Origin: Somniosus microcephalus
Lineage: Eukaryota
Assembly (NCBI GenBank): GCA_052327205.1
Contig: CM126225.1
Span: 23,994,001-24,058,000 of the forward strand
Direction: 5' to 3'
DNA length: 64,000 nucleotides
The notes below the pieces were generated by a model. That model made no database searches. It was not told where the DNA came from and worked only from the letters and a program-made list of their open reading frames with translations. Positions 1 through 54,882 of the stretch are shown here, piece after piece. How positions within the stretch are numbered: the first letter of the stretch is position 1; each line of letters starts with the position of its first letter. A program made the position numbers and the translations under genes.

Positions 1-425
1 GGTCGCTGCGGGGTTTCCTTCTGGATTTGTCCAGTGGCACGGTGATCCCCAACATTCTGTATAACCATATCTTCATTCGATGCCCAGTTCGGGTTGGGCG
101 AGCAGGGCTGCTCCTTTGGTTCATTCTTCTGAAAAAAAACTTAAAAGGACATGCAGCCAGGTCTCTCACTGACCTGCTGACTTACGTGGAGACATGGTCG
201 GGTCCCTCGACCTCGGACCAAAATACCAACATTTGGCACACTTATGAACTTAAACTATAAACTTAAAACTACAAAACTAGTTATATCAAAACTTAAAATT
301 CACCTTAAAAGCACGCTATATTCAAACCAAAGCTATAATACAAATGCCACCCATCTCCGGCCAGGCTAATCTCTGGCACTGTCGCAGATTACTGCTGGCG
401 GCAGCGAAGCTGGACTACCTCCTGC

Positions 426-1674
426 TTAAGGTCCCTCGCAGCTTATGGCTGCTGGTTGGGGACCTCTGTTCTTTGGCTTCTCCCCGGTTCGGGAGCTTGC
501 TCTTTGTGGCAGGTACTCTGGTGACCATCTTCTCTTGGGCTTGCGGACCCGCTGAGACTTTCTGAGGGGCGTCTCTGTGGGGGAAACATTGGCTGGCAGA
601 CCCTGAGCCTGAGTCGCAGCCCTAGTTGGCTGGGAACCTTCACCCCCTGGTGCAAATAGCCCAGACTGTATAATATACCTGGCAGCCTGCCGGAACTCCG
701 GGTTTGTCTCCTTTTCCCTACCCACTCCTGTACTGGGGGCAGGTATTCCCTCACCACCCACTGCTGGTGGCTGGGAATCTTCCTCCCCATGTCCAAAACC
801 TGTTACCAGCTCCCCTGCAAGAGGAATTGCTATCCCTGCCTCCCCAGGGTCCCACATCATGGGGGGGACCACTCTAGAAGCGGGCTGGGAAGCTTGTTCC
901 TTTAAACAGGTGACTGCATCTGCGCGAATCTCCTCCCGAGTCCCTCAGCAGAGGCTGTGAAGCCTCTGTCTTCAAGCAGGCGACTGCGCCTGCGCAGGGA
1001 AACCGAAAAAGAGCCGCTGTGGTCCCACAGGCAACCGCGCCTGCGCATTCGGTTTCCTTAAAAAAGATAGGAAGAACCGCTGGGTCTTCCAAGCAGGCTA
1101 CTGCGTCTGCGCGTATAGATTGGGAAGCGGGGACCTTTAAATGGCCGACTGCGCCTGCGCGCTTGGCCTTACAGTGGACAGGAGCCGCTGGGGGTTCAAA
1201 GTTCGCGACTGCGCCTGCGCGAACCTGGTGTTGGCAAACCTCTCCCCTTAGGCGTGCGACTGCGCCTGCGCGGGAAAACTGAAGAGGAGCTGCTGGGAGT
1301 ATGGGCTGGGGAACCGCGCTTGCACGAGCAGTCTCTGTGAATGGATTGGCAGCAGCCTGCAGATTCCTAATCTCAGGTTGCTGTTTCTGTTTCTGAGCCA
1401 CATAACTTGTTCAAATTTAAACTTTGGCCAAAACTTAGTTTCCACTGGGGCAGGGAAGTGTCCTAATTTGTGGGCTGGACAACTTTTCCTGGAAACAAGC
1501 CACAGCGCCTGTCTTTACAGGCTGTGAACTTGAACTTGTCTTGTCAGATTTATACAATTTTCCCGAATTTCCCTGTGTCCCATCCCTGCCTGTAATCGCT
1601 GCCACTGGCCCAGACTCATATGGGTCCCAGAAAGTGCCTGCACGTGCACCCTCCTTGGCCTGCATACCGGCCAG
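426..1674 (-). pseudogene. Unknown ORF at the pol position, in frame after the gag TGA; AGAVA-repeat protein with integrase-tail-like LRKSQRVRKP end
   Basis: ORF pieces 1435-1665, ~1400-1445, 874-1401 and 426-872 join with about 3 single-base shifts; repeated (R/C)AGAVA motif; no pol catalytic motifs. Confidence 0.6.
910..1326. repeat. Degenerate dispersed repeat GACTGCGCCTGCGC x8 with variable spacers
   Basis: Motif starts at 912, 982, 1033, 1099, 1147, 1207, 1258, 1312 (weak copy at 1501); spacings 70,51,66,48,60,51,54. Confidence 0.85.
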
Positions 1675-3284
1675 TCATTGTGGGGAGGCAGAGGTGGGCG
1701 AGGGGGGTGCAGCACCACTGATGGCTGCCACCTTTCCCTGGTTGGTCAGGAGAGACCGCATTGCCTCCAGTAGTGACTCGACTGAGGCGGGGGAAGTTCC
1801 TGTCTCTACCCTTTGAGTTGGGGCTGCGGGGGTCCCGGCTTTATCGTCTCTCCCAGGCCTTTTACAATCCCTGCGCCAGTGGCCATCCTCCCCGCACCTG
1901 TAACAAGTGACCTTTTTCTGGGAGGGATGGCTCCCCTCCTGGCGCCACTCTTTCTTATATTGAGCCCCAGGTTTAACCTCGTGGACTTTACCCTTTTGCT
2001 GGGGGGTCTCACTATTCCTCCCGTTCCTATATGCTACCGTGAGCTGCCGGATTACAGTCTCTTCAGTTACTAGGGGTCTCGGTGGTCAAACCAAGTATCA
2101 GCTTTTACTTTTATCTGGGGTAGGCAATTGGACACCAGGCAACGAAGCCATTGGGTCCGCTGCCTCTCATTCAGGTGTGCCCTATTTTGTCCCCCTGTAC
2201 ACGCGCTGTTGTAGACTGGCCACAGCCTGTCTGCAAATGCCTGTGGGGGTCTCCTCTTCCTTCTGCAGGGTTTTCCTTACGCGATCGAACGGATTGCCGT
2301 CGTTCGCACGCATGGCTTCCAGTATTTCCTCCTTCAGGTCCTCAAAACCCTTCTGCCCTCTCTTCACCTCATCTGAAAGGGTCTGATAGAGCTTGCTATC
2401 CACAGAGAAAAGCAACATTTTGGCTTTCTCTTCATCATCACAGCCGTTAACACCGGCTGCCTGTTCTACTTGTTGGAAGTGCATTGAGGGGTCTCCCTTT
2501 TCAGAGAGCATGGGAATATGTTTCACCATGCCTCTGAACTGTTGGGTATCACAGGGTACCAGATAGGTATTTTGAACAGCCCCTGGGTTATTATCGCTCA
2601 CGGCCAGACCGTACCTCCGTTGTCGGAGGGGGTACACTGGTCCTGGTCCCGCCTGCCTAGCGGGACCTGCTGGCGTTCTCCTACCACCCCATTGTCCACC
2701 CCTTCTTGCTGACAGAGCTCCTCAAAACCCAGAGCTGTGGGCTGCTGTCTTGGGATCTCTAATTCCCTAGCCAGCCTTTCCCTGGGTGTTGCCTGTGGGG
2801 CGGTTTGATTTGGGCTGCTGGTAAAATCCAGCTGACCTGCCTTCGGGCCGATCAGGCAAATCATCCCCCTTGCTCCTTTTAAAGCCATGTTAAGGCTTTC
2901 TAACTCTGCCCTACAGGGGCCATGATCTGCTTCACTAAACCTTTGGTCGCAGGCCAGCTTATAAGTTGCTGTAACTTCTGAGATGAGGCGGACATTCTCT
3001 TCCCTCAGTCTCATCTCACTATCTCTGGCCTCAGTGACTTCCTGCATAAGGTGCTCTATCTCTGCCTGGCATTTTTCCAATTCTGGCTCCCGATTCTTGG
3101 TCTCTGTCACCTGCTCCTGCTTCCTCATCTCACCCTTCTTAACCCAGTCACCTATACTATAATAGGTCAGCTTACACACTGCCGCTAACATCTGCAGGAC
3201 TACCCACAGACTGAAAGCAAGAAAAGCAAGAGCCGATGCTTTCTCCAGATCCAGACCACTCATCATATCAAGAACTGCCTCCAT
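1675..3284 (-). pseudogene. gag: gag polyprotein (~536 aa reconstructed across 3 single-base frameshifts)
   Basis: ORFs 2598-3317 and 2182-2637 plus shifted frames give: hydrophobic N-terminus, coiled coil, capsid-like region with MHR-like QKEEETPQAFADRLW, zinc knuckle CYRCGEDGHWRRDC (1864-1905), stop TGA 1675-1677. Confidence 0.85.
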
Positions 3285-3301
3285 TCCTGCCGCGGTCGCC
3301 A
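3285..3301 (-). promoter_or_regulatory. Primer-binding site, tRNA-Arg(TCG) type
   Basis: TGGCGACCGCGGCAGGA is complementary to the 3' end (...TCCTGCCGCGGTCG-CCA) of vertebrate tRNA-Arg(TCG) as I recall it; gag ATG (3284) follows immediately. Confidence 0.85.
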
Positions 3302-3304
3302 ATT

Positions 3305-4445
3305 TGTAGGGGGGCATCTTTTTCGGGGTTTCCTTTACCTGGTTTACGGTAATTTACCTGGTCAAGCAGCTTTTTGCCACTGCACCTCTGACCAATCCCA
3401 AACAGTGGTCTCGAATCGCTAAACCCCACCTTCCAGTTCTGACTGGAGGACTTATAATTAATGATATATTAAAAACGGACAACTGGTCTGGATGTGAGAA
3501 AATCAACTTTTATTACACTAAAGAAAACTACACCACACGATTTTAGTAATCACTGTGCAATTGGTTAAATGGGGGAAGACAGATGGCAAAAACGAGGGAT
3601 AAATGGCTACAATGTTAATTAAACAATCTTAGCAATTTCCCTTAAATTACCACGCCCTTTAACTCCTTACGAGATTGCCTTGCTGAGGAGTCAGAAACCT
3701 GCTCACCTGTGGTCCAAGGAAGTAAGAGAGAGAGATAGCTTCTCAGGAGCTATCTTTATACCCTGCCAACTCCTGCTGTTTGGCGCTGAAAGGGTCTGTG
3801 TGCAAATTGGTGCCCAAAAGTTCAAATACACAAGAGAAAGGCTATGATTGGCTGATTCAGATTGGTTTGAATGTGTCTACATTCTGGGGCCAAAATGTTC
3901 CCGCCCACATCCGGAGTTTAATGGGTGATTCAAAAACCCATTCATTCCTTATCAAAGTCCTTTCCGTAGTTTTGATGTGTCCCATTATGTGTAAGTGGTG
4001 TTGAATGGGGTTGGATTTCTGTGTAAACAGAAGCCCTTTGTCTTGCGGTCAGTCTCAAGTGGTTTAATCCCTTATGTCAACATCCTGCAGTTTCTTGTAA
4101 ACAAACATTGCTTCTGTAGAGAAGGGAAACTCCCTGGTTTGATTGACAGGTCTGACTGCCACTGCTTGATCCTCCCACTTACACAGACACTTCGAGCTGC
4201 TTCTCTTGCCCTTTTTGGCCATGCTTTTCTGACGGCCATTTTCAGACCCCTCTGCAATTTACACAGTTCGAAACTCAGAGGTACCATTTTAATCTTAAAG
4301 TCCTGATGTTGTCCAAGAGTTCTGGGTATGCTTTTAAAACATTGTCCAACCCAGAGACAATTCAAATCACACAATTCTTCGTCCACGATGTGGACCAATA
4401 TTTTCCGATCTTCAGGGATTTATGGGATTTTTGCGAACCCCTACA
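3305..4445 (-). repeat. 5' LTR (1141 bp)
   Basis: Minus strand begins TGTAGGGG (4445) and ends CCCCTACA (3305), an 8-bp terminal inverted repeat. Two CCAAT boxes ~3846-3866, TATAAA 3755-3760, AATAAA 3509-3514, splice donor CAG|GTGAGC at 3706. PBS follows 3 nt after the end. Confidence 0.88.
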
Positions 4446-5055
4446 CGCCACTCCGCCATTTGCTTCACACAAATGGCATTTCGCCCTTAGCCTCCCCATT
4501 ATTTTTAAGAACTTGCTGGATTTGCACATTAATTGCCCATTAAACTCGCCACCACAAGTTAGGGCTGGTAAGTACCTTTTTAATTATATGATCATTGTAA
4601 ATGCAGAGCCAATCAACCTCAGAAATTAAATAATTTAAACTGTGGAGTCTCATTCCTTCAGGTGGTAAATTGTTCTTCGAGATTTAAAAAATGATAAATT
4701 TAAAAAAAAATTCTTACTTTCCCTTTCTGTCTTTTTTTCTCTCTCAATCAAAATCCTTTTCCCCCTCTCTTTATTTTTCTTTCTCTACCTGTTTTGACTC
4801 TAATTCACCCTATTTCCTTCTCGGTCATTCCTCTGTTTCTTTCACAATCCTTAAATCTCATTGGTGAAGGAGATAGACAGTTGGTCCCACCATTCACTGA
4901 GGCCCCAGATGCCCCGTTGCCCTCGCTGCACCGTTACCAACTCGCACTTCCAACAAGTTACGACACAAAGCCATTTTGAGCTGAAGGATGCAGAAAAAAG
5001 TCTAACTAACAGGGCACTCCACGGGATGCCCCCCTCTAGCAGGCGCCAGCCCATT
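4446..5055 (+). mobile_element. Non-autonomous DNA-transposon-like repeat (family A), truncated by the LTR element insertion
   Basis: Shares internal blocks (gtctcattcc, tttccctctctttatt, attggt.aaggagata.acag) with 5632-6329 and 25797-26496. Confidence 0.6.
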
Positions 5056-5631
5056 CTAATTCTCGTTTGGGTTTGGCTGTGTTTTTGCAGGTTTTGCCAT
5101 ATACTAAATCAAGCTGGGTCTGCCTAGATTACTGTATAACACTATAACAGAGGCTCCCAAACTTTTCCATGCTGAGCCTTCCTTTGGAGATTAATGTCCC
5201 ATTCACACCTCCCCCACTTTTTCTAAGAAGATGGCAGAGTTCAATCCGATTGGTTTCAAAAACTGTGAAAAAATTGAGAGAAGTTTAAAATGCTCACCCT
5301 GTTTTCAGCCGTGGTCTTCAAATAGCCAACTGCTTTAAGGATCTCTGCTTTCATGCAGCAACCAAGAGAGGCCACAGAAATGCCTTTCACTTTAACTGGT
5401 ATAGCCTCAGAGAGCCAGAAGAGGTGCATTATAGGGCGATATCTTAAAGGAGAACATCAGCATATTTTTAAATCTTCCTATTCAGTATGGTGCCTGCCAG
5501 TAAATATCCATCTCCTGTGGTGGCCATGACGATGAGCTGGGAACATTAAGCTATAACTTCTCCCAGTGCATTCTGGGTAATAGACAAGTATGCTTTACAG
5601 CTTTCCAAGCGCAATGTAGAAAAATACAGTC

Positions 5632-6329
5632 GGCCCAGATTTTGCAGCAAAGTAACAGTCAGGCTAATGGCACTAACCGTTATTTATGCGCAAATGGTAC
5701 AGCAAGTTCGGGCGAGGGAAAATGCACATTTAAAATCAAAAAGTTGCAGTCCGAGTTGCGCCGCTCTGGTGTTAGCTTCACGAAAACGAGATCTCACTGT
5801 CTGGCTCACCATTGACACGCATTGAATGGCGAGAAAATTGTTGTATTTGTGAGGTAGATAGAAACAGTTAATTGCTGCCAAACAACCTCTCTGGCATTGA
5901 AAATTACCTATTACCAGTGTGAAGTCTCATTCCATCAAGTTTTAATTGTTGTTAGAGATTTAAAAAATGTAAAATGTAAAATTTAATTTATTTTTACTTT
6001 TCCTTTCTGTCTTTTATTTCTCTCTCTCTTAATCCAATTTTTCTTTCCCTCTTTTTATTGCGCTTTCTGTACCTGATTTGACATTGAATTCCTCCACTTC
6101 CTTCTCAGTCCTTGCGCTGTTAATTTCACAATCTGATTGGTTAAGGAGATACACAGTTGCTTTCCCTGTTCACTCAGGTCCCTGATTCCCCGTTTCCCTC
6201 GCTGCAATGTTATCAGCTCACACTTTTAGCAGCTTGCCATGCAAAAAAATTAAAAATCTAAACATGCAAGGGGCAAGTTTAACTAACGGCAGATGCCATT
6301 AGATGATCTGCTACAGCAAATTATGGCCC
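5632..6329 (+). mobile_element. MITE-like repeat (family A)
   Basis: Imperfect TIRs GGCCCAGATTTTGC / GCAAATTATGGCCC; homologous to 4446-5055 and 25797-26496. Confidence 0.65.
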
Positions 6330-7316: not shown

Positions 7317-9130
7317 CATAAGAACACAGGAGTAAGCCATTCAGTTCCTCAAGCTTGTTTGACCATTCAATTAGATCATGGCTAATCTGTATCTTAATTC
7401 CATCTACCCGCCTTGGTTCTGCACCCCTTAATACCCTTGCCTAACAAAAATTTATCAATCTCAGTTTTGACATTTTCAATTGACCTCCAGCCTCAACAGC
7501 TTTTTGGGGGAGAGTGTTCCAGATTTCCACTAACCTATGTGTGAAGAAGTGCTTTCTGGCATCACCTCTGAATGGCCTGGCTCTCATTTTAAGGTTATGC
7601 CCCTTTGTTCTAGACTGCCCCACCAGTGGAAATCATTTCTCTCTAACTACCCCATTAACTCCTTTGATCATCTTAAACACCTCAATTAGGTCGCCACTTA
7701 ACCTTCTATATTCAAGGGAATACAAGCCTAGTCTATACAATCTAACCTCATAATGTATCCCTTTTAGCCCCGGTATCATTCTGGTGAATCTACACTGCAC
7801 CCTCTCCAAGGCCACTATATCTTTCCTGAGGTGCGGTGCCCAGAACGGAACACAGTGCTCCAAATGGTGTCTAACCAGAGCTCTGTACAGCTGGAACGTA
7901 ACTTCCACCCCTTTGTATTCCAGCCCTCTTGGGATAAAGGCAAACATTCCATTATCTGTCCACTAGCTTTACTGATTTCCATACTTGAAGCACTAAATCA
8001 CTCTGCTCATCCACAGTTCTTCGCTTCTCGCCATTTAGAAAATACGCTGATCTATCTTTCTTAGCTCCAAAGTGGATGACCTCACACTTTCCCACATTGA
8101 ACTCCATCTGCGACAGTTTTGCCCACTCACTTAATCTATCAATGTCCCTTTGCAACTTTCTGCTCCTGTCTACACTAGTTACTGTGCCACTAAACTTAGT
8201 GTTGTCAGCAAACTTGGATATACGGTTCCCTATTCCTTCACCCAAGTCATTTATACATAGAGTGAAAAGCTGTGGCCCCAGTACAGGTCCCTGGGGGACA
8301 CCACTAGTCACATCCTGCCAATTGGAGTACATACCCATCATCCCTACTCTCTGTCTCCTACCTCCTAACCAATTCCCTATCCAAGCCAATAGGTTGTCTC
8401 CAATTCCATGCAGTCTAATTTTTGTTAACAGTCTCTTAATTGGAACCTTGTCGAATGCCTTATCAATCCATATCAATAACGTCCACAGACACTTCCTTAT
8501 CTACCACGTTTGTTACCTCCTCAAAAAATTCAACTAAGTTCGTAAGACAGGACTTGCCCTTTACAAAACATGCTGGTTCTCTCTGATCAGCTCCTATTAT
8601 CCAAATGCTCAGTCACTCTGTCCCTAACTTCCCCACACCAGATGTTAGACTAATAGGCCTATAATTTCCGAGTTTATCTCTTCTACCCTTCTTAAATAAT
8701 GGAGTGACATTGGCAATTTTCCAATCAAAGGGGACAATTCCTGAATCGAGAGAGTTTTGGAAGATCATGACTAACTCATTAACAATTTCCTCACCTACTT
8801 CTGTTAATTCCATGGGGTGGTAACCATCAGACCCTGGAGATTTGTCTATCTTTAATCGCATTTGTTTCTCTATCACCAATTTGTTTTACTTATACCCCCT
8901 GTATTGAATCTAGTTAGTTCCTCCCTTTGATTTATTTTTAGCTTCCCTTGTATCTATGATACTTTATCCTCATCCTCTACTGTGAAGACCAATACAAAGT
9001 AAGTATTTAGTAAGTCTTCCATTTCCTAATTTCCAATTGCAATATTAGCTGCGTCTGTCATTAGTCTTAGCCATCCTTTCTCTTTTAGTGTTGTCCTTGC
9101 TATCCCTTGCATGTTTTTGCTCGTATTCCC
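7317..9130 (-). mobile_element. CR1 LINE, 3' part of ORF2 (RT) and 3' UTR, decayed
   Basis: ORF fragments with KSPGSDG, NYRPISLTS, KAFDKVP, VPQGPVLGP, KFADNTK, LRGDLIEVFK; CR1-type tail near 7317. Confidence 0.9.
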
Positions 9131-13943: not shown

Positions 13944-14547
13944 GGGGTGAAATTCATCTTGGGCCTAACGAAAAAATGGGCGATAGCGCATCGGCCGCCT
14001 GCTTTGCACTCCAACGATTTTCCTCGTTATTAAAGTCAACAGAAAAGAAACTCAGGCAGAGTGTTAAACGGGCTGCTGCTACACTACCGCCCGTGGTGCA
14101 CTACCTACCACCTTAAACATTCACTCCCTCCACCACCGGCATACAGGGGCTGCAGTGTGTGCCATCTACAAGATGCACTGCAGCAACTCGCCAAGACTTC
14201 TTCGGCAGTACCTCCCAAACCCGCGACCTCTTCCACCTAGAAGGACAAGGGCAGCAGGTGCATGGGAACACCACCACCTCCAAGATCCCCTCCAAGTCAC
14301 ACACCATCCTGACTTAGAAGTATATCGCCGATCCTTCATCGTCGCTGGGTCAAAATCCTGGAACTCCCTCCCCAACAGCACTGTGGGAGTACCTTCACCA
14401 CACGGACTGCAGCGCTTCAAGAAGGCGGCTCACCGCCACCTTCTCAAGGGCAATTAGGGATGGGCAATAAATGCTGGCCTTGCCAGCGACGCACACATCC
14501 CATAACCGAATTTTTAAAAAACTATCGCCCAGGATGAATTTCACCCC
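13944..14547. mobile_element. Harbinger-like MITE with nested LINE 3' fragment
   Basis: TIR GGGGTGAAATTCATC / GATGAATTTCACCCC, 3-bp TSD CTG; LINE fragment ~14105-14520 inside. Confidence 0.7.
14105..14520 (+). mobile_element. 3' fragment of CR1-group LINE (same family as 21985-24928)
   Basis: Near-identical to 24520-24920. Confidence 0.85.
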
Positions 14548-15104
14548 CTGCATCTCACCGAGCTTCACCAATGCTGGACGTCACACGTCAGGCTGCAGCA
14601 GCAGCTTCATAGAATCATAGAAAGTTACAGCACGGAAGGAGGCCATTTCGGCCCATTGTGTCCGCGCCGGCTTCAATTGGTAATGCTGAGAACATTTTCA
14701 AACGGTAGTTTTCATGCGCGACCTTCCTTAAGCAATGACATTTAAACACTCTCTGTTCCTTTCTGTGTGACCGGGAGTTTGAGTCACAGCGTGGGCAGAA
14801 ACCTCAGCCTGTTGTACCAATTTGCGTGTGAGGTATTGCTCGCCTGAACTGCTTCCTGGAGAGTTCCATTCTGAAGTCAGGCTCGGTTCTCATCATTTCA
14901 CCCACTGAAAAGGACGCAAGTCACACACCGTGGTGTCAAAGGCTGCAGGGGACTTCCTGACTCATTCAACTGCTCTCTGGTTGTGAGAACATGTCAAAGA
15001 CAGAGGCAATAATATGGAGAAGACAGCAAGTTGAAAACAGCAGCTAAATAAGAAAAAATTACCTTTTTGTTTAAATGTGACAATAGGCATTGTTAATTGA
15101 TAAT

Positions 15105-15190
15105 AAAAAATAAACAGAAAATGCTGGAAATACCCAGCAGGTCAGGCAGTATCTGTGGAGAGAGAAACAGAGTTAACGTTTCAAGTTCTG
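15105..15190 (-). mobile_element. Penelope-like element terminal fragment
   Basis: Reverse complement of 16515-16600 (gaaacgttaactctgtttctctctcc...ctgctg...tttccagca). Confidence 0.7.
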
Positions 15191-16144
15191 TTAATTGATG
15201 GCTGTTTATGAAGCAGGCAGATTTGGGGTCTGACATCAGCACTTGCACAAATCTTGTAGTTGCTCAAAGGTTGTGTTTGTGTCTTCACCATTCTGACCAT
15301 GCACTCTCCCAGATGTTGGACAGAGCTCCGTGGAGGGAACAAAGTCAAAATCACATTGTGGGTTAGAAGGGGTGAAGGGGGAGGAAGCTGAGAGCTCTCT
15401 TCACCCACAACCAGAATCAAATGGCAAGTGGTCCTGTCATCAGCCATTAATGTTGCTATTGTCAACATTTTGCTGCAGGAAACAAAACTACTCCATGAGG
15501 TAGAGTTACCTCCCTGTAATGTAAATAGGGTTTGATATAGTAGCACCAAGTGAAAAATTCCAGCACAGTCATAGGTCATGAACCCAAGATAATGCTCATC
15601 ACATATTCCGCACAACCCAACAAAAAGGCAAAGGATAGCAAGATACCATTTTACTCTCCACTTATTTTTAGTCATTGGGAATAATGTCTAAATGTATGCC
15701 TCAGCTTAATAAAACTGTCTATGTGTCATTCACAACAAGTTGCACTGCTGGTATGAAGTCTATCTGTAGCAGCACTAAACAGAGGTCTTGCAAATCCACA
15801 GGCTGCATTGCCAGCAGTGACTCGGGGATCGCACCCACTGGAGCCCTCCAGCGTTGGCCCCACAAGAGTTTGCACGGGGCTGGCAGATGCATGCGGCATT
15901 ATGGGCACATCTCCATAGCCCGCCTGCCCTGTGCAGCTGGAACATTAGGCGCCTGCCTGCCTGCCATTGAGGGCTATTGCTCAGGCTCCAACCCTCACCC
16001 CCTCCGAGACCCCAGACATCTCCCCTTCAGCCCTTTGAACAAGGGGGCTGATAGAATAAACATGAAAAAGATGACCATTTCTTTGGAGGTCCAGGTCACT
16101 TACTTGCTGCCCACCCAAACAGGAGCCAATTCCAGTTTGTTGTA

Positions 16145-16600
16145 CTTTTTGATTAGACACTCTACAGCCTTCTGGACTCAACATAGAGTTCAACAATTTC
16201 AGATCATAACCTCAGCCCATATCACTATATATATTCTCTCTTTTTAATCCACACTTTCGTCTGGGCTTTTTTCTGCCCTCCCACATGGCAGCTGTCCTTC
16301 ATTCTGCCAGCGCCATTCACACTTCATCTAGAGCCATCCTTTGTTCCTTGAATATCTCTTAATGTCTCTCAATGTCTCTTAATCTCTCCTGCTTTCTATC
16401 CTATCACTGACCTTCCCTTTTGTTCTTTCATCCCCTCCCCCTTTTCCCAGCCCCCCACTTGCTTTAAAATCTATCCCTTTTCCTGCTTTTTTTCCAGTTC
16501 TGACGAAGGGTCTTCGACCTGAAACGTTAACTCTGTTTCTCTCTCCACGGATGCTGCCCTGGCCTGCTGAGTTTTTCCAGCGTTTTCTGTTGTTATTTTT
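16145..16600 (+). mobile_element. Penelope-like element 3' end (endonuclease C-terminal remnant plus pLTR)
   Basis: Encodes TLQPSGLNIEFNNFRS*, typical of vertebrate PLE ORF ends; pLTR carries a hammerhead core. Confidence 0.75.
16496..16532 (+). ncRNA. Minimal type I hammerhead ribozyme (PLE type, probably dimeric)
   Basis: AGTT-CTGACGA-[AGGGTC TTC GACCT]-GAA-ACGT-T-AACT: stem I AGTT/AACT, CUGANGA and GAAA cores, palindromic ACGT stem III, GUU cleavage triplet. Confidence 0.7.
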
Positions 16601-16929
16601 GTATGCCTCATCTGACTCGATGTGTTGGTTCTACGCCAGGTGCCGACACAGCCGTCGAAGCGCAAATTAATTCAATTAAATCAAGGAAAAGGAAAATTGG
16701 GCATTGTCTATGATGGGGGTCCAACCTACAATGCTGACTTCACGCTACAGTGTGTGTTGTAGATTCCTCCCTAGGAATGCATATTTGGATTGTTTATCAG
16801 GTCTGCAGTGGAATTTTCAAAGAGTGATTCATAGGGGTTGAGACTTTGGGACCCTTCAGACGGTCAGCAGTACTCAAAATGAAGAGGTGGCTGCAATTCT
16901 GAAGCACCAGTCTCATTTCGGGTACCAAA

Positions 16930-17415
16930 GCATGGGAACACCACCACCTCCAAGTTCCCCTCCAAGTCATACACCATCCTGACTTAGAAGTATATCGCCG
17001 ATCCTTCATCGTCGCTGGGTCAAAATCCTGGAACTCCCTCGCCTAACAGCACTGTGGCAGCACCTTCACCACACGGACAGCAGCGGTTCAAGAAGGCGGC
17101 TCACCACCACCTTCTCAAGGGCAATTAGGGATGGGCAATAAATGCTGGCCTTGCCAGCGATGTCTGTTGAGTCTGTGTTTTCAAATGTAGTTATGCTGAA
17201 TAACAGGACACAGACTACAGAAGTAATTAAACAGGTCTTTAGTGATTGAGGGTCAGGGCTGAACCGGGATACACCTTGCTCCGCAGGGTCTATATACCGG
17301 TGTGGTCACCACCGGTACTACAATGTACAGGAGCCATCAAAAAGTAGTCCATCACCTTAAGGTATCCTCTTAAGGTGGTACAGGTTACATACACTACAAT
17401 GCCCACATCTCACAG
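16930..17415 (+). mobile_element. CR1-group LINE 3' end interrupted by a solo LTR
   Basis: Matches 24670-24915; tail is split at 17164/17399. Confidence 0.8.
17165..17398 (-). mobile_element. Solo LTR (234 bp)
   Basis: TGT...ACA termini, 5-bp TSD ATGTC/ATGCC, internal TATA (~17291); splits the LINE tail exactly. Confidence 0.75.
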
Positions 17416-19324: not shown

Positions 19325-20140
19325 CATAAACTTGAGGTCATCCAGAATTCGGCTGCCCGTGTCCTAACTCGCACCAAGTCCCGTTCGCCCATCACCCCTT
19401 TGCTCGCTGACCTACTTTGGCTCCCGGTTAAGCAACGTCACGATTTTAAAATTCTCATCCTTATTTTCAAATCCTTCCATGACCTCGTCCCTCCCTATCT
19501 CTGTAATCTCCTCCAGCCCTACAACCCTCCAAGATATCTGCGCTCCTCCAATTCTGGCCTCTTGAGCATCCCAAATTTTATTTGCTCCACCATTGGTGGC
19601 TGTGCCTTCAGCTGCCAAGGCTCTAAGCTCTGGAATTCCCTCCCTAAACCTCACCACCTCCCTAAACCTCACCACCTCCCTAAACCTCTCCACCTCCCTA
19701 AACCTCTCCACCTCTCTAAACCTCACCACCTCCCTAAACCTCACCACCTCCCTAAACCTCTCCACCTCCCTAAACCTCTCCACCTCTCTAAACCTCACCA
19801 CCTCCCTAAACCTCACCACCTCCCTAAACCTCTCCACCTCTCTAAACCTCACCACCTCCCTAAACCTCACCACCTCCCTAAACCTCTCCACCTCTCTAAA
19901 CCTCACCACCTCCCTAAACCTCACCACCTCCCTAAACCTCTCCACCTCTCTAAACCTCACCACCTCCCTATACCTCTCCACCTCTCTATCCTCCTTCAAG
20001 ATGCTCCTTAAAACCTACCTATCTGCTCTAATATCTCCTTATGTGGCTCAGTGCCAAATTTTGTTTGATAACGCTCCTGTGAAGCACCTTGGGACAATTT
20101 ACTATGTTAAAGGCGCTATATAAATACAAGTTGTTGTTGA
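19325..20140 (+). mobile_element. L2 LINE 3' fragment with expanded minisatellite
   Basis: LLWLPVKQRHDFKIL, PPYLCNLL, GGCAFS...KLWNSLP; tail aaggcgctatataaatacaagttgttgttg. Confidence 0.85.
19640..19990. repeat. 18-bp minisatellite (C/T)CTAAACCTC(A/T)CCACCTC, about 19 copies
   Basis: Direct inspection; explains the LPKPHH/REVVRF/SLNLTT ORFs. Confidence 0.95.
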
Positions 20141-21984: not shown

Positions 21985-24928
21985 GACCCACAGCAATGTG
22001 GTTGACTCTTAACTGCCCTCTGAAATGGCCGAGCAAGCCACTCAGTTGTAACAAACCGCTAGAGAAAATAACAATAATAAGAACAAAACTGGACGGACCA
22101 CCCGGCATCGACCTCATCACTGATTTCGGACATGACAACGGCACACCCAGCCCAGTCGACCCTGCAAAATCCTCCTCACTAACATCTGGGCACTTGTGTC
22201 AAAATTTGGAGAGCTGTCACACAGACTAATCAAGCAACAGCCTGACACAGTCATACAGAATCATACCTTTCAGCCAATGTCTCAAATTCCTCCATCACCA
22301 TCCTGGGTATGTCCCGTCCCATCGGCAGGACAGACCCACCAGAGGTGGTGGCACAGTGGTATACAGTCAGGAGGGAGTGGCCCTGGGAGTCCTCAAAATT
22401 GACTCTGGATACCATGTTGAACACCACTAGAAGAAGCACTGAGGGTAGCAAGGGCACAGAATGTACTCTGGGTGGGGTACTTCAATGTCCATCACCAAGA
22501 GTGTCTCGGTAGCACCACTACTGACCGAGCTGGCCGAGTCCTGAAGGACATAGCTACCAGACTGGGCCTGCTGCAGCTGGTGAGAGAACCAACAGTAGGG
22601 AAAAACCTACTTGACCTTCTCCTCACCAATCTACCTGTCGCAGATGTATCTATCTATGACAGCATTGGTAGCAGTGACCACCGCACAGTCCTTGCGCAGA
22701 CGAAGACCCATCTTCACACTGAGGACACCCTCCATCGTGTTGTGTGGCATTACCACCATGCTAAATGGGATAGATTCAGAACAGATCTAGCAGCTCAACA
22801 CTGGGCATCCATGAGGCACTGTGGGCCATCAGCAGCAGCAGAATTTTACTCCACCACAATCTGTAACCTCATGGTCCGGCATATCCTTCACGCTACCATT
22901 ATCATCAAGCCAGGGGACCAACCCTGGTTCAATGAGGAGTGTAGAAGAGCATGCCAGGAGCAGCACCAGGCGTACCTAAACATGAGGTGCCAACCTTGGG
23001 AAGCTGCAACACAGGACTACATGCATGCTAAACAGCAGAAGCAGCATGCTATAGATAGGGCTAAGCGATCCCACAATCAACAGATCAGATCAAAGCTCTG
23101 CAGTCCTATCACATACAGTCATGAATGGTGGTGGACCATTAAACAACTAACGGGAGGAGGAGGCTCCATGAATATCCCCATCCTCAATGAAGGCGGAGCC
23201 CAGCACGTGAGTGCAAAAGACAAGGCTGAAGTGTTTGCAATCATCTTCAGCCAGAAGTGCCGAGAGGTGATCCATATCGGCCTCCTCCTGAGGTCCCCAC
23301 CATCACAGAAGCCAGTCTTCAGCCAAGTCGATTCACTCCACGTGATATCAAGAAACGGCTGAGCGCACTGGATACAGCAAAGGCTATGGGCCCTCACAAC
23401 ATCACAGCTGTCATGCTGAAGAATTGTGCTCCAGAACTAGCCGTGCCTCTAGCCAAGCTGTTCTAGTACAGCTACAACACTGGCATCTACCCGACAATGT
23501 GGAAAACTGCCCGGGTATGTCCTATCCACAAAAAGCAGGACAAATCCAACCTGGCCAATTACCGCCCCATCACTCTACTCTCAATCATCAGCAAAGTGAT
23601 GGAAGGTGTCATCGACAGTGCTATCAAGCGGCACTTACCAATAACCTGCTCACCGGTGCCCAATTTAGGTTCCGCCAGGACGACTTGGCTCCAGACTTTA
23701 TTGCAGCCTTGGTCCAAACATGGACAAAAGAGCTGAATTCCAGAGGTGAGGTGAGAGTGACTGCCCTTGGCATCAAGGCAGCATTTAACCGAGTGTGGCA
23801 TCAAGTAGCCCTAGTAAAATTGAAGTCAATGGGAATCGAGGGGAAAACTCTCCACTGGCTGGAGTCATACCCAGCACAAAGGAAGATGGTTTTGGTTGTA
23901 TGGAGGTCCAGCATCATGCCCAGGGCATCACTGCAGTAGTTCTTCAGGGCAGTGTCCTCGGCCGAACCATCTACCGCTACTTCATCAATGACCTTCCCTC
24001 CATCATAAAGTCAGAAGTGGTGATGTTCACTGATGATTGCACAGTGTTCCGTTTCATTTGCAACTCCTCAGATAATGAAGCAGTTCTTGCCCGAATGCAG
24101 CAAAACCTGGACGACATTTAGGCTTGGGCTGATAAGTGGCAAGTAACATTTGCACCACACAAGTGCCAGGCAATGTCTATCTCCAACAAGAGAGTGTCCA
24201 ACCACTGCCCCTTGATATTCAACAGCATTATCATTGCTGAATCCCCCACCATCAACATCCTGGGGGTCATCATTGACCAGAAACTTAACTGGACCAGCCA
24301 CATAAATACTGTGGCTACAAGAGCAGGTCAGAGGCTGGGTATTCTGTGGTAAGTGTCTCACCTCCTGACTCCCCAAAGCCTTTCCACCATCTACAAGGCA
24401 CAAGTCAGGAGTGTGATGGAATACTCTCCACTTGCCTGGATGAATGCAGCTCCAACAACACTCAAGAGGCTTGACACCATCCAGGACAAAGCAGCCCACT
24501 TGATTGGCACCCCATCGACCACCTTAAACATTCACTCCCTCCACCACCGGCGTACCATGGCTGCAGTGTGTACCATCTACAAGATGCACTGCAGCAACTT
24601 GCCAAGGCTTCTTCGGCAGCACCTCCCAAACCCATGACCTCTATCACCTAAAAGGACAAGGGCAGCAGGCGCATGGGAATATTATCTCCTGAAAGTTCCC
24701 TTCCAAGTTACACAACATCCTGATTTGGAAATATATCGCTGTTCCTTCATCGCCGCTGGGTAAAAATCCTAGAACTCCCTCCCTAACAGCACTCTGGGCG
24801 TACATTCACCACATGGACTGCAGTGGTTCAAGAAGGCGGCTCACCACCACCTTCTCAAGGGCAATTAGGGATGGGCAATAAATGCTGGCCTTGCCAGTGA
24901 TGCCCCCATCCCAGGAACGAAAAAAAAA
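21985..24928 (+). mobile_element. Near full-length CR1-group LINE (APE endonuclease + RT), disrupted
   Basis: GYFNVHH, LLDLLLTN, SSDH (APE); NYRPITLLS, QGSVLG, MFTDD (RT); AATAAA and A-rich tail; multiple stops and frameshifts. Confidence 0.9.
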
Positions 24929-45019: not shown

Positions 45020-45590
45020 TAGGAACTTAGGTAGGCCCTTCAGCCCCTCAAGCCTGTCCCGCCATTTAATTAGATCATCGTTGATATCTGCATCTTAGCT
45101 CCTTTTACCCTCCTTGGTTCTATATCCCTCAATACTCTTACCAGGATTACACTACCCTTTGGGTGAAGAAGTGCTTCCTGACTTCATCCCTGAACGGCCT
45201 AGCTCTAATTTTAAGGTTATGACTCCTTGTTGGGGACTCCCCACCAGAGGAAATAGTTTCTCTCTATCTACCTTAGCAAATCCTTTAATCATCTTAAACA
45301 CCTCAATTAGATCACCCCTTTGATCTTCTATACTCAAAGGAATACAAGCCTTGTCTATGCAGCCTGTCCTTTTAGCCCCGGTATCATTCTGGTGAATCTG
45401 CACTGCACCCCCTCCAAGCCCAATATACCGATCCTGAGGTGCGGTGCCCAGAACGGAATGCAGTACTCCTGATTTGGCCTAACCAGAGCTTTATACAGCA
45501 CCAGCATAAATTCCACCCCTTTGTATTCCAGCCCCCTCAAGATCAAGGCTAACATTCCATTAGCTTTTTTTGACTACTTTTTGCACCTGG
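45020..45590 (-). mobile_element. CR1 3' fragment
   Basis: LYKALVRP..EYC..FWAP, GDLIEVFKMIKG; same family as 7317-9130. Confidence 0.85.
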
Positions 45591-45719
45591 AAATGAAATA
45601 AGAAATGAAATGATTTGGACTTTGCCAGGGACAAAAGAAACAAATAACACTGTGATGTTGCTCCAACAACTGTAACTCCAGTTATAAAGTAAATTTTCTT
45701 TCTAATGAACGACATTTGT

Positions 45720-46672
45720 GTCAGTGTGGCTCCGTTGGTAGCACCCTCACCTCGGAGTCATGAAGGTTGTGGGTTCAAGTCCCACTCCAGGAACTTGAGC
45801 ACAAAAATCTGGGCTGACACTCCAGTGGAGTGCAGTGCTGAGGGAGGTGCTGCACTGTCGGAGGTGCCATCTTTCGCATCGTTCACTCAGTTGATTCCGG
45901 AGATGAGGGGGTTGACTTATGAGGAAAGGTTGAATAGGTTGGGCCTCTACTCATTGGAATTCAGAAGAATGAGAGGCGATCTTATCGAAACATATAAGAT
46001 TGTGAGGGGGATTGATCGAGTGGATGCGGTGAGGATGTTTCCACTGATGGGTGAGACTAGAACTAGGGGGCATAATCTTAGAATAAGGGGCTGCCGTTTC
46101 AAAACTGAGATGAGGAGAAACTTCTTCACTCAGAGGGTGGTAAATCTATGGAATTTGCTACCTCAGAGAGCTGTGGAAGCTACATCATTAAATAAATTTA
46201 AAACGGAGATAGACAGTTTCCTAGCTGATAAGGGAATTAGGGGTTACGGGGAGCGGGCAGGGCAGTGGACGTGAGTCTAGGTTCGGATCAGCCATGATCC
46301 TATTGAATGGTGGAGCAGGCCCGAGGGGCCGTATGGCCTACTCTTGCTCCTACTTCTTATGAGATGTTAAACCGAGGCTCCATCTGCTCTCTCAAGTGGA
46401 CGTAAAAGATCCCATGGCACCATTTCGAAGAAGAGCAGGGGAGTTCTCCCCGGTGTCCTGGCCAATATTTATCCCTCAATCAACATCACTAAAAGAGATT
46501 ATCTGGTCATTACCACATTGCTGTTTGTGGGAGCTTGTTGTGCGCAAATTGGCTGCTGCGTTTCCTACATTACAACAGTGAGCACACTTCAGAAAGTATC
46601 TCATTGGCTGTAAAGCGCTTTGGGATGGCGGGTGGGCATGAAAGGCACTATCTAAATGCAAGTCTTTCTTTT
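45720..46672 (+). mobile_element. SacSINE1-like (Deu-domain) tRNA SINE with nested CR1 fragment
   Basis: Head TGGCTCCGTTGGTAGC...GGTTCAAGTCCC; body resumes at ~46361 (gagatgttaaaccgaggc); L2-like tail. Confidence 0.75.
45880..46361 (+). mobile_element. Young CR1 3' fragment nested in the SINE
   Basis: Open frame LTYEERLNRLGLYSLEFRRMRGDLIETYKI...FFTQRVVNLWN. Confidence 0.9.
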
Positions 46673-49000
46673 TATGACCTCAGGATGTCCCAAAGTGCTT
46701 TGTAGCCAATTAAGTACTTTTTTAAAGTGTAGTCACTGTTGCAACATAAGAACTACAAGAATTGCTCCAATTGTATACTTTGCCTGAATCAGCCCATTTG
46801 CAGGCCACAATTTACACACTTGCCTAACCCCAGTTGTTACTTGTGGCTATTGCCGTAATTCAATTTGAGCGCACTTCCTTGTAGCTGGCAGAAAAATGAC
46901 AGAGAGTTTAGCAGGTTGGAATAGGCTGGTCACCACCAAGATGTAGGCCTGTGATTTGCTGAAGTGTATGATGATATGGTGAGAGCTGTGCTGACTCACT
47001 ACCTGCCTCTCTCATGGAGTCAAACCCCGTAAGAGCATAAATCTCTTAAGAAGTGCTGTATTTGATTTCCATTTAGAACTGGTATATAAATAGAAAGAGC
47101 TAAGTCAGAAATTTCATTTGCATCTCGAATTTTTAACTTGGCTCTTACCATTCAGACACATATTAAAACATGCAAAGGTTGTGACTAAATGGTCCGAATT
47201 ATTAAAGGATTTGTCTGAAAGATAATGTACTGGTAGTAAGCACCTTATTTCGAGGGCAAACCTGAGGAGATCAAATGTGAAAAGTTAAATAGAAATCAAA
47301 AGGCTCTGAGAAATTAATTCAGTGGGTTGAATTCCAAGTCTTATCAGGACTGAAGTAATAGTTAATTATGTATTAAACTGGATAATGCAAATTAATTTAC
47401 GTGCAAGGGAATCAAAGGCTAACTAATTAAGGAGATGCCAGGTAGGCACTGGTATAACGTAATGCAAATCACAGAGCATGGCGCCTGGTAAGCACTAGCT
47501 GAGCATGAGGAACATGTGCCACAGAAGAAGGTGGGTATGGTAGTGTGCCAGCAAGCACCAAAAGAGACTGGACAGCTTGTCCCAGGACCAAGAGGTTTCT
47601 GGCTTTTGGGAACAGGGCTACGGCACACCAGCTGAAAAAAAAACTCTTCAAGACCCTCGCAGTGGACCATTACATGGTGCAGAAACAGGAGAGCACGAGA
47701 GAAACACATTTATAGCTTGTGAGAGTTCTCCTGATTGTCTGCCGTAACCTCCCGCCCAAACTCCGGCGAAACAGCACAAACAGCTGTTTCCCTGGGATCT
47801 CTGAAGATCTTCCACTGAAATTATGGCGGATAACTGGGAGGAACCCCCCCGCCCTCCCCACACGGAAATTCCAGGTGTATATATTTAAATATCCCTGTCA
47901 ATATATATTCATGAACAATTATTTTGTTCAAGCATTTTTGAAATTTTGCATGTCCTAATCCCTCTGATTTATACCATCTCATGCCACACCTATGAATGGC
48001 TGGGGTAGATATCTCATTATAAACCTTTTTCTCTGAATGTACTCTGGGGAAGTACGGTATAATACTACAGTAGACAGTAGATCGTTGCTGTCCTCTGCAA
48101 TTAGCTGGACGTTAGATCTTTTCCCTTACAGTTTATCCCTCTCGTTTCCTGGGAATTGAAATCTTTTATTTATTTTTTTAAAAACAGGGAACTGTACACA
48201 TTGTCCCCTCACACAGGATCCAATATTGGTTTATTCTACTGCACCATCACTTTTCTTCACCAATAATCTTAACAAAACATTAAATAGCTGCAAAACAAAA
48301 GGAGACATTGCCCTGTTATTCAGCAGCCGGGTGGGGGAATGGATCTGTGCAACTGGCATAAAAAAATTATTAGTAATAATAAAAGCATTCACTTAGAAAG
48401 AGAGTAGAGTTGAGCCTGCGGCATAGAGATTCGAGGAGTCGTTTTATGAGATTCCAGTACTGGATGCGTATTGACAAAAAGGTATTTAAATATACAACCT
48501 ACAGAATATATGTAACCTTGCTAATGGCACATGTGGGTTGGAGAATCGGAGCTGTAACGTTATATTGTTATAATGTAACACTATCCTGGTGTTGCAGCCT
48601 CAGAAATGGCCCCGTCTCCACAAATATAAAATAGGTTTGATTTTGCATGTTTTGTCATTTGAAACTTAAAAAAACACTAATTATGTTAAAGCGCCCAGTT
48701 GGTCCCCTAGAATGGACAGCGTGCGTCCCTGTTTATTTAACACAGTAACATAGTAACGATATACTGAATTTATCCCGAGGCACCCTGCAGCTGTCCAGAC
48801 CCTATGCTACTTTGTTACTGCTTTGCCAACCAGTGGAGCCAATCTTTCAGTTTACTCTGTTAAAAAATATTTTAATGATTTTGAAAACTCTGTTAGATCC
48901 CTGCTTAACCTTCTCTGTTCCAGCTTTTCTTCATAACTATAAACTTTCACTCCTGCTGTTATTCCAGTCAATCTTCACTCTACCCCTTCCCTAGTTCTAA

Positions 49001-49090
49001 CAGCGTTCCTATGATGGACAAACACTGGTTGGGGTGTACAGTGAGCGTTCCTATGATGGACAAACACTGGTTGGGGTGTACAGCGAGCGC
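49001..49090. repeat. 42-bp tandem duplication
   Basis: agcgttcctatgatggacaaacactggttggggtgtacag(t/c)g x2. Confidence 0.9.
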
Positions 49091-50529
49091 CTGATCCAGT
49101 CATATCAACACCATGGCTAGAAGAGCAGGACAGAGGTACTAGTCTGGTTTAGCTGAGGTCCGCTGCTCATCCTAGAACTTGTATTTGCATCACTGTTTAC
49201 TCATGTCAACTTTTTGGTTTCATTAGCGAAGAGGAAGATACGGCCTTGGTGCCTTTTAGCGTCTTTCTGATAATTCATAGCTTAGAAATGAATATTGCTA
49301 ATATCAGTGGATGAATGCTTAGTACGTTCATATGACATTCCTCCGCTAGTTTATGCAGCTGTTAAACCATTTATTTTAAATGGTTTGATCTTTCTGCTGA
49401 AATGGCAAAGGAATGTCGCACAAATGCATTAAGTGCTCATCTTCAAATATTACCAGCAGTAGATTCTAGATTAATAACCTTTTGTATGTGCAAATCCCTA
49501 AAGCAAAATTTCCTTGCTCTTTATAAAAAGGGGAAGGTTCTGTCTGCTAGATAGTGTGTATACCACAATCACTGAGTGGTGTCACAAACACTGTGTAACA
49601 CTCCCGAGGTCCAAACACCCTCTGAAGTTTCAAAATCTGTATGGGTTTTCTATCATTAAGCATTTAGTTAATTCGCTGCTTTGGAAAATGACTAATGTGG
49701 ACATTGTGATGAAACTTGGTGTAGTGACAGAACCCCTGCTGGGATCACAGCCTTGCTGAACTTATCCATAGTGTAGTCCTGTTATACTTATTATTTTAGA
49801 AGTAGAAAACATTCCGCTTCAGAATTTGAGGTGTGTGAACGATATCAGGGTGTTTGCAACTCTCCTGGGTCACGCTGACAATATTGAGTTAATTGCTTAT
49901 GGTTCTGTGTACTGCTCTAGCTGAAGTTGCTAGTATTAAATGTGCATGGAGACACAGGCGTATGTGTATCTTGAATGCTGACCAAGTGTCTTTCAGTTCT
50001 GAAAGGGATAAGTATCAGAAGTTAACCAAACACAAATTATTGCTCAGCCGAGAGTGGGTTTGCAGGATCACACCCGTGAGCAGTTTGCACATTGTCAGAC
50101 AAATCATTTTATTTGTTGGCATTGTCTGTTTATAATTTACAACCATATGGTCTGTGCTTTCTATGGGTGTCTAGGGAAGTACTTTTGAATTGTAATTAAA
50201 CGATTCTACTTTAGCAAAGCAGAGATGAATGGAATATGTAAGATCCAAAAAGCATACAGCTGTGTAAACAGTTAACTGTATCTCAGAGGCAAGAGCGCCC
50301 TCCAGTGGACACACTTTCCCAAAACCAAGCATTCCCTTTATAGGTTGAAGAGTGAGTTTCACCGTCAGCATCCTTGCTTTAATCAGTTTCAACATAGGTA
50401 CAATGGATTGTGCATGTTAGAGCCCTGACATGCTGTGCCATAGAACTGAATATCAAGCGGGGCGCATAACAGGTGGCCAATGCGATAACACCCGATATGC
50501 GCTACAAACTTCCACCCCAAAGAGTGAAT

Positions 50530-51675: not shown

Positions 51676-51844
51676 AGTACTTTAAACTTAATTAGAACTT
51701 TATAAAAGGGATATGTGAGGTATACAATATTGAGTTATATCACTAAGGTATAAAAATGATGTATTCACATTGAGATTTTGATCTGATTAGATATGTTACA
51801 AATGTCACTAGTAATATTCTACTTTCGGCAGTCTTTAGCCATAC

Positions 51845-54825: not shown

Positions 54826-54882
54826 CCAGGATGGTCATTCTTCAGTACCATATCAGGATGGTCGTTCTTCAGTACCATATCA
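54826..54882. repeat. 27-bp tandem duplication
   Basis: caggatggtc(a/g)ttcttcagtaccatat x2. Confidence 0.85.

Follow-up and report, generated by a model that had tools for sequence, protein, structure and literature searches.

The window analysed here, a stretch of 64,000 nucleotides from Somniosus microcephalus contig CM126225.1, holds near its beginning the 5' part of an LTR retroelement that lies on the minus strand, as do all features given below. Its 5' LTR (3305..4445, 1141 bp, ends TG...CA) contains a TATA-like word near 3755-3760 and an AATAAA near 3509-3514, both read by eye, and is flanked by a 4-bp target-site duplication (4446..4449). The identical four bases occur beyond the 3' LTR, outside the window, and 4-bp duplications were also present in five of the eight other copies compared. 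The intact LTR termini described in the initial annotation, which was made from the letters alone, are indeed found at 4445 and 3305, but this is the single LTR inside the window. The 3' LTR lies ~1110-2270 bases past window base 1 (98.0% identity to the 5' LTR over aligned bases, 96.7% by BLAST with gaps), and the whole element reaches ~2.3 kb beyond that base. The primer-binding site (3284..3301) matches the 3' end of tRNA-Arg(TCG) at 17 of 18 positions, in line with the Arg site that had been proposed, and a gene for this tRNA was found in the same genome.

The gag gene (1675..3284, from an inferred start codon) encodes a hydrophobic N-terminus (3159..3233, Kyte-Doolittle 19-mer maximum 2.29), a coiled coil, a capsid and one CCHC zinc knuckle typical of nucleocapsid (1861..1908, Pfam zf-CCHC 2.5e-07). 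It ends at CAA-TGA-CTG (1672..1680; wider context CCA-CAA-TGA-CTG at 1683-1672), a stop that is predicted to be leaky and is followed in the same frame by LAGMQAKEG, a continuation read correctly from the outset. The frame behind the stop, henceforth ORF-X, comprises ~37 codons (1561..1670) and a longer tail (426..1560). Within the tail lie seven repeat cores (910..1271) at a spacing of 48-70 nt, which encode GAVAC and read on the plus strand as GCGCCTGCGC, a site of the NRF1 type, an array that Tandem Repeats Finder did not report, and close to its end a basic motif, LRKSQRVRKPKRRWSP (519..566). Other copies continue ~20 codons past 426, where the end had first been placed, and the tail frame of the family ends near 363. 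The 3' internal region (1..362) starts there and extends beyond the window edge.

This copy is dead. Three frameshifts near 2650, 2249 and 2076 interrupt gag and had been overlooked, although the CCHC part of the original gag assignment stands, and the Gag of a sister copy is predicted to fold like a capsid (see below); about three further breaks, near 1489, 1388 and 948, interrupt ORF-X at the number of single-base shifts already noted. With its gag frameshifted, the window copy cannot make the capsid that had been attributed to it. It is one more decayed insertion of the usual kind and gives no hint of host function or co-option.

Origin of the frame behind gag

In pol-bearing sister copies a single frame runs gag-TGA-PR-RT-tether-RNase H-IN-tail and ends in the same repeat tail as the window copy. 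The first codons of ORF-X match, in a sister pol, the final helix of RNase H together with the linker that leads to integrase (E 4e-18), and the next part matches the stretch immediately behind the C-terminal domain of integrase (E 3e-14). The first remnant is joined to the gag stop by an in-frame deletion of 2349 nt, which removes pol from codon 2 up to the RNase H end that remains, and the second by a 1200-nt in-frame deletion of the integrase. We are therefore nearly certain that ORF-X is a deleted pol produced by two deletions; the integrase was probably lost first, since one copy carries that deletion alone. The window copy has its breakpoints in common with 16 of 19 copies chosen for likeness of their gag, and among the fetched copies 36 have them besides the window. 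The exact deletion junction has 392 matches in the genome, and the junction of the stop into protease has 566.

The initial annotation had read these data as the replacement of the pol interior by a repeat protein, novel and of unrelated origin, under selection as a protein. It is true that a Pfam scan of ORF-X in three pieces found no family, and that the tail, predicted with a mean pLDDT of 40.7, found no match in a structural search, as such a protein might. However, the junctions fall at exact pol positions, the tail is shared with pol-bearing and env-bearing copies, in which it ends the pol frame, and amino-acid change in it is neutral (see below), all of which makes a novel protein extremely improbable. 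The segment 426-1674 is deleted pol, an outcome that the annotation itself had named as its refutation, its repeat region being the normal Pol C-terminal tail of the sisters, and the reported lack of pol motifs is right as far as Pfam families go but misses the RNase H end and the post-integrase tail. A nested insertion was ruled out as the source of ORF-X, because its junctions are positions within pol that are found again in other copies. Splicing was likewise rejected as the origin of the deletions: GT-AG pairs were absent at the 10 junctions inspected, several of which show short microhomology.

What does survive of the earlier proposal is a non-autonomous, pol-defective family with a kept read-through context, CAA-TGA-CTG being retained in frame with pol in 17 of the 19 gag-picked copies, and the existence of autonomous partners. 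Two pol-bearing copies (L013 and L017) are ~89% alike to the LTR and gag of the window copy over 2.6 kb, and a third (L035) shares its Arg primer-binding site.

The parent lineage and its relatives

Gag, pol and env lie between two LTRs in six of the seven sister loci whose 3' part was fetched, and this env-bearing lineage resides in the same genome as the window lineage, of which only a decayed env remnant is left (~140-520 bases past window base 1). The hydrophobic Gag N-terminus of the window copy stands where the env-bearing sisters have a matrix-like start. Structure prediction gave a capsid model for a sister copy (pLDDT 73) whose best Foldseek hits were to MLV CA (E 1.1e-3, no hit reaching E 0.001; probability 1.0; CTD TM 0.76). 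Lokiretroviruses themselves are marked by a capsid resembling those of MLV and Ty3, a second RNase H next to a Ty3-like tether, an RT in a clade that is sister to the sampled retroviruses, an integrase nearest to CGIN1/NYNRIN and an env similar to paramyxovirus/pneumovirus F (PF00523). A pol-bearing copy carries a dual RNase H, with RT_RNaseH_2 (1.3e-20, tether) followed by RNase_H (2.6e-18). In a quick RT tree that held no labelled lokiretrovirus or foamy virus rows, the sequences grouped with frog and coelacanth pols (SH-aLRT 96) and outside the class I/III clade (91). The nearest named relatives were also from frogs and coelacanth (50-55% RT identity), foamy virus being the closest to the RT among solved structures. 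As to the integrase, the nearest named homologues were labelled NYNRIN-like, a label also borne by other ERV proteins. Compared with the coelacanth pol protein, the Pol described here has an extra tail of ~250 (env-bearing) to 500 (env-less) codons past the point where that protein ends.

By eye, the sister env shows an RQRR site, a hydrophobic peptide, a heptad region and a C-terminal hydrophobic span. PF00523 had no match in five env pieces, a search of env against solved structures found none either, and a genome-wide profile search with PF00523 was uninformative, as its control matched nothing either. Because env failed the PF00523 test, we call the parent lokiretrovirus-like and not a member of the group. 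With lokiretroviruses as described by Wang and Han (2021) in the available part of PMC7947760 it has in common the LTR-gag-pol-env order (in the sisters), an MLV-like capsid and the tether plus RNase H; it differs in its host, a cartilaginous fish, a class absent from the host list given there, and in its env without a PF00523 match, and gag read-through is not a topic of that part of the source.

The family is transcribed somewhere, as RNA reads from two runs labelled as the same species match it, at low depth, on both strands and mostly with 90-95% likeness, and a few of them cross the integrase-deletion and protease-to-integrase junctions.

Among known non-autonomous elements, two invite comparison. 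IAPs are class II ERVs, betaretrovirus-like. The mouse IAP 1Δ1 subtype (PMC6466679, available part) is similarly env-less with an in-frame internal deletion and receives its enzymes in trans, the fusion frame being needed in cis in IAP; the features by which it is recognised, namely an amplified fixed deletion, a pol-bearing partner with the same LTR and primer-binding site and a kept fusion frame, are all seen here. In our family, by contrast, gag is whole, the fusion is reached only via a leaky stop, and several independent deletion families follow the same frame rule. Zebrafish BHIKHARI (PMC12067270, available part) is lokiretrovirus-related, expresses Gag with an N-terminal coiled coil, is defective in pol and env and depends on a partner. 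It consists of one ORF with no pol component, whereas the elements described here retain in-frame pol remnants, have a CCHC knuckle and not a glycine-rich patch, and share the genome with their partner. A search for Gag homologues found one protein among 8000 candidates scored, and none named BHIKHARI. Literature searches, with Repbase and subscription journals outside their scope, gave no match for in-frame deletion combined with nonsense-mediated decay (NMD) in non-autonomous LTR elements or for an IAP signal peptide, and no lokiretrovirus report from sharks among the matches listed.

Tests for selection on the frame and on its sequence

Deletion junctions present in at least two copies were in frame in nine of nine cases (2349, 1200, 1209 in two forms, 3177, 3183, 3192 and 3198 nt, and loss of the repeat array), those of single-copy deletions in 10 of 20. 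The nine amplified junctions are not fully independent and some may derive from one another. What fills the frame is variable, a stub of either RNase H or protease and 0 to 14 repeat cores. ORF-X also lacks a fixed start codon, as no more than 24 of 37 copies have ATG at codon 4.

Substitutions tell of the same constraint. In the tail of the deletion family of the window (family A), stops account for 2 of 460 shared changes versus 27 of 636 singletons (p 3e-5), and for 2 of 223 A-private variants, i.e. those absent from every pol-bearing and family B copy (p 0.016; 0.006 without CpG codons). The depletion reaches the last 170 codons (1/151 shared versus 11/220, p 0.03) and was not found in the two shifted frames of the A tail (p 0.9 and 0.69), in the A 3' UTR (p 0.87) or in A gag (4/170 versus 7/301). 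For missense relative to silent changes, shared versus singleton, the ratio of ratios in the tail was 0.91 (p 0.54), compared with 0.52 (p 0.002) for the CA-NC part of gag in A, 0.34 (p 0.003) for A-private variants of the latter, 0.24 for RT and 0.36 for IN; in family B the value for gag was not significant (0.83, p 0.54). Judged by these ratios, gag is under purifying selection in the deleted family, in which the amino-acid sequence of ORF-X evolves neutrally. Since stops are depleted and missense changes are not, it is the open frame that matters and not most of its sequence.

Could chance have produced the pattern, with a few founder deletions that happened to be in frame and recombination with pol-bearing copies refreshing the tail? 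Family A rests on two founder junctions, which would both be in frame by chance in 1 of 9 cases, LTR and gag variants are mixed among copies in a manner that suggests recombination, and repeat spacings are already multiples of three (443/455). Set against this, all nine amplified junctions are in frame and the depletion of stops persists among A-private variants, which makes such hitch-hiking unlikely. Selection has very probably kept the frame behind the gag stop open.

Read-through and possible reasons for an open frame

The single gag-pol frame, with a stop placed after the CCHC knuckle and ahead of the protease DTG, is the arrangement of gamma- and epsilonretroviral read-through, and some retroviruses of fish and frogs have UGA at this junction (PMC13517186, available part). 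The context differs: UGA-CUG resembles the alphavirus UGA-CUA type and no stable hairpin or pseudoknot follows, folding of ten copies giving no structure beyond that of shuffled sequences (z -1.15 to +0.41). UGA-CUG is one base off the UGA-CUA type listed in the same source; programmed read-through of that type has UGA followed by CUA or CGG, in frame with a downstream gene without a conserved start codon. This distance and the missing structure weigh somewhat against read-through. In full-length copies pol codon 24 is an ATG that precedes the protease motif, and a spliced or internal pol start may be used in them.

In reporters, NMD is inhibited by 1-5% read-through, the unprotected control being a construct with a second in-frame stop (PMC5360307, available part). 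We propose that the frame owes its retention to a similar effect. The deletions in pol of a lokiretrovirus-like parent gave a family that now occupies 392 or more loci and whose gag is under purifying selection. This implies that its RNA was translated and that its own Gag likely packaged it, while the pol-bearing sisters would supply the enzymes. With the gag stop ~3.7 kb ahead of the poly(A) signal, this RNA would have a decay-prone layout; rare read-through ribosomes that reach the end of the Pol tail would shield it from NMD, and an out-of-frame junction would halt them immediately and forfeit the protection. Such a role would need codons to stay open and not to spell anything in particular, as seen in the junctions, stops and missense changes of the tail. 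We put the probability that RNA protection is the main reason for the open frame at about 0.5, on comparative sequence evidence. Two observations run the other way: ~2.4 kb of untranslated RNA still follows the stop of the tail itself, and stops are depleted even in the last 170 codons, where the length of the UTR hardly changes.

On a broader and more tentative view, somewhat short of even odds, a lokiretrovirus-like lineage of cartilaginous fish became an intracellular transposon by losing env, replacing its matrix, on two occasions, by a hydrophobic anchor on Gag and giving rise to several independent pol-deleted families, all with a sequence-indifferent frame behind a leaky stop. If true, this would be genomic evidence that read-through itself was selected as a device for RNA survival, apart from making Pol. 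The protection of viral RNA from NMD by read-through rests on reporters, and in intact retroviruses it is confounded with the demand for Pol. The families described here have lost Pol and yet independently retain an open frame whose sequence is free to change, which would separate the two needs and provide a natural series of constructs for testing. The range of lokiretrovirus-like elements would likewise grow by a vertebrate class that the cited papers do not list for them, with env-bearing, env-less and pol-less stages coexisting in a single genome.

The tail might instead act in cis as part of a Gag-tail fusion protein, its basic motif aiding, for example, nuclear entry, chromatin tethering or RNA packaging. 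The RNase H/integrase linker, at which a protease would be expected to cut, is kept in family A, and the C-terminal part of the tail is present in every deletion class, including those without repeats. Between env-bearing and env-less lineages this part has a dN/dS of ~0.5 with RRS, WSP and RGPQ-AA-SC kept (the first two lying in the basic motif), a value that is biased down by protein-guided alignment and reflects pol-bearing lineages. This weak conservation and the retention in all classes favour a protein role, as does the reach of stop depletion into the C-terminal part, and the gag-pol fusion of IAP 1Δ1 sets a precedent (PMC6466679, available part). But no part of the tail shows missense depletion within A, the basic motif included (0.81, p 0.79, at low power), and the tail lacks a confident fold. 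By analogy a cis-acting fusion is possible, and we hold it to be the less probable reason when set beside RNA protection.

Finally, the tail may have been kept as DNA or RNA, the tandem NRF1-type sites forming an internal enhancer and the open frame being a by-product of 3n duplication. Against 1.5 expected, the window has 17 matches like GCGCCTGCGC, of which 14 fall at 980-1271, and the motif has demonstrated function in human cells (PMC10810270). Four-fold degenerate positions of the core are 0.95-0.99 conserved among 534 units with variable flanks, a figure inflated by the gathering of units by likeness to the core, and env-bearing copies have one core compared with up to 14 in env-less ones. 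This account leaves the in-frame junctions and the stop depletion outside the repeats unexplained, the array is altogether absent from five copies that belong to a single amplified class, and we regard the account as very unlikely to be why the frame is open. An enhancer role of the array could nevertheless coexist with protection of the RNA by read-through.

The window copy and its deleted pol

The genome searched for copies comprises 6.4 Gb in 2112 contigs; its many chromosomes of graded size and its LINE and SINE tails may point to a shark or another cartilaginous fish. The window element lies on the minus strand, with its 5′ LTR at 4445-3305 and, at 3301-3284, a primer binding site that matches tRNA-Arg(TCG) at 17 of 18 bases, in line with the Arg-tRNA site of the initial annotation. 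Gene status of this tRNA was confirmed at two of three scanned loci and its 3′ end has 347 matches across the genome, so the primer is likely abundant; a long array of 1.6-kb period (G000:C35:1579240-4390569) bears the same 3′ end. The LTR termini reported earlier hold for the one LTR in the window, the second lying beyond the window edge, ~1.1-2.3 kb past base 1; over aligned bases the pair shares 98.0% identity, and the insertion is flanked by a 4-bp target duplication. Gag carries a CCHC knuckle and stops at CAA-TGA-CTG (1680-1672, minus strand). Its frame is broken near 2650, 2249 and 2076, and that of ORF-X, the frame behind the stop (~426-1674), near 1489, 1388 and 948, in agreement with the roughly three shifts first counted. 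Since both are broken, the window copy is inactive.

ORF-X had been read as a novel repeat protein standing in place of pol, and comparison with 19 further copies chosen by gag similarity overturned this. In three, pol reads on from the identical stop, and one of these has a 1279-codon frame with protease motif, tether, RNase H, integrase zinc finger, core and SH3, followed by the same GAVAC repeats. The window and 16 of the 19 have two breakpoints in common, a loss of 2349 nt that brings codon 2 up against the last RNase H helix and a loss of 1200 nt that joins the RNase H/integrase linker to the integrase end; codons 1-79 of the window ORF-X align to both pol places (E 4e-18 and 3e-14). One copy with only the integrase deletion is a likely intermediate. 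The tail, i.e. the post-integrase part of Pol with the repeat cores, gave no Pfam match, confident fold or structural match.

By exact pattern, the deleted junction (family A) occurs genome-wide at 392 loci, and at 566 others the stop leads into protease. In 24 family A copies the two LTRs share 94.8-99.2% identity (median 97.1). Sixty protease-start loci, taken in even steps through the first 100 among the matches listed, comprised 19 in which ~80 protease codons are joined to the integrase C-terminal domain (family B), 6 with the RT region joined to the integrase end and 15 with pol covered without large deletion, the remainder being interrupted, truncated at the edge of the stretch or otherwise deleted. 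Many different deletions (loci L032-L108, pol codons ~1129-1148) end within the same 60-base zone just ahead of the integrase C-terminal domain, as might be expected if recombination favours this zone or if the domain is being retained. At L036 (G000:C1:195375874-195388557) three family B junctions spaced 6.3 kb apart indicate that deleted proviruses stand there in a tandem array. At L021, L027, L044, L048 and L119, pol frames of other LTR retrotransposons lie within or beside family copies.

Selection on residues and on the open frame

We contrasted changes present in at least two copies (shared, propagated) with those in one copy (singletons, mostly post-insertion decay). Missense/silent counts in gag CA-NC of 33 A copies were 99/67 shared versus 217/77 singleton (p 0.002), and 18/19 for A-private changes (p 0.003); those of RT were 66/160 versus 236/138, and of integrase 62/106 versus 175/108. 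Two results weigh against selection: that on family B gag was not significant, and stops in family A gag were not depleted. In the tail of 36 A copies shared and singleton changes were alike (323/135 versus 441/168, p 0.54), so its residues are neutral, while stops were depleted (2/460 shared versus 27/636 singleton, p 3e-5). Stop depletion persisted when a second reference was used, when CpG codons were left out and among A-private variants, and was not found in shifted frames or in the 3′ UTR.

All 9 deletion junctions present in at least two copies are in frame versus 10 of 20 single-copy deletions, although 20 A copies were selected via the first junction, and that junction can be scored as a single event only. 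Of the net indels present in at least three copies, 5 of 6 in the non-repeat tail preserve the frame, compared with 6 of 24 in the 3′ UTR. Between the stop and an anchor downstream of the repeats lie 201 to 1285 nt in A copies, a length divisible by three in 24 of 37 of them.

By analogy with IAP 1Δ1, a non-autonomous mouse subtype for which passages of PMC6466679 report a cis-acting fusion, a Gag-tail fusion might itself act in cis. The C-terminal part of the tail is kept in every deletion class, stops are depleted near its end and its dN/dS between deep lineages is ~0.5 (capsid 0.21-0.30, RT ~0.09), all in favour of such a role, which we nevertheless rate as less likely than the RNA protection discussed below. 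The repeat core is an NRF1-type DNA site as well, and might in addition serve in regulation.

Inferred read-through and possible RNA protection

Read-through and non-autonomy, both proposed at the outset, we continue to infer. Family A RNA was translated into Gag, which likely packaged it, and enzymes would be supplied in trans by pol-bearing sisters. From the gag stop to the poly(A) signal is ~3.7 kb. In the reporter experiments described in PMC5360307, 1-5% read-through inhibits nonsense-mediated decay, and RNAs with longer translated extensions gain less protection at low read-through; short in-frame deletion forms would thus give the most stable RNA. Such a gain would be independent of what the frame encodes, and RNA protection by read-through, to which we give about an even chance (0.5), is consistent with selection on the frame where residues are neutral and content varies freely. 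RNA protection and a cis-acting fusion are not exclusive. RNA reads show low family transcription, on both strands.

Deleted helper-dependent ERVs and gag-only lokiretroviruses have already been described (PMC6466679, PMC12067270). In the open literature searched, we found neither lokiretroviruses in cartilaginous fish nor, for deleted elements, selection on the frame alone downstream of a leaky stop.

Parent lineage and surroundings

Among solved structures the RT is closest to foamy virus (161 bits; MLV 118, Ty3 94), and the named proteins nearest to it come from frogs and coelacanth and carry the label NYNRIN-like; both hosts figure in a lokiretrovirus host list within PMC7947760. The predicted capsid model is similar to MLV CA. 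The genome also contains a divergent sister lineage in which env lies between tail and 3′ LTR (6 of 7 loci examined), the tail is short with a single repeat core, and Gag has a matrix-like start. Because this env gave no match to PF00523, we describe the parent as lokiretrovirus-like and do not assign it to the lokiretroviruses.

The window lineage retains an env remnant only (27% identity over 130 residues, E 8e-4), its repeat core is expanded up to 14 times and its Gag starts with a hydrophobic stretch. Loss of env is accompanied by a hydrophobic start of Gag (window 3159-3233; L050; L039, L116-L118): the window type was seen at 49 loci and a differing one at one further env-less locus, and the matrix-like start at 6 sister-lineage loci, 5 with env sequence downstream. 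IAP Gag has an ER-targeting signal, which the hydrophobic start calls to mind. The sister env (L113 1824-4166) has a weak Ig-domain match near its start (E 0.038), and the frog relative P0056 an Ig V-set-like module directly after pol (residues 1195-1331, Atlas 0.94).

About 1 kb past the 3′ LTR at L011, amid CR1/L2-like LINE fragments, lies a 308-codon transposase frame (5361-6287) that we take from its motifs to be Harbinger-like. The window also holds dispersed LINE and SINE fragments (7441-8537; 14094-17160; 24034-24928; 45141-55714), among them RT-like frames at 7633-8500 and an inverted pair of 504 bases (24262-24765 with 53150-53653), and a tandem array of 18-base period and strong GC skew (19567-20060).
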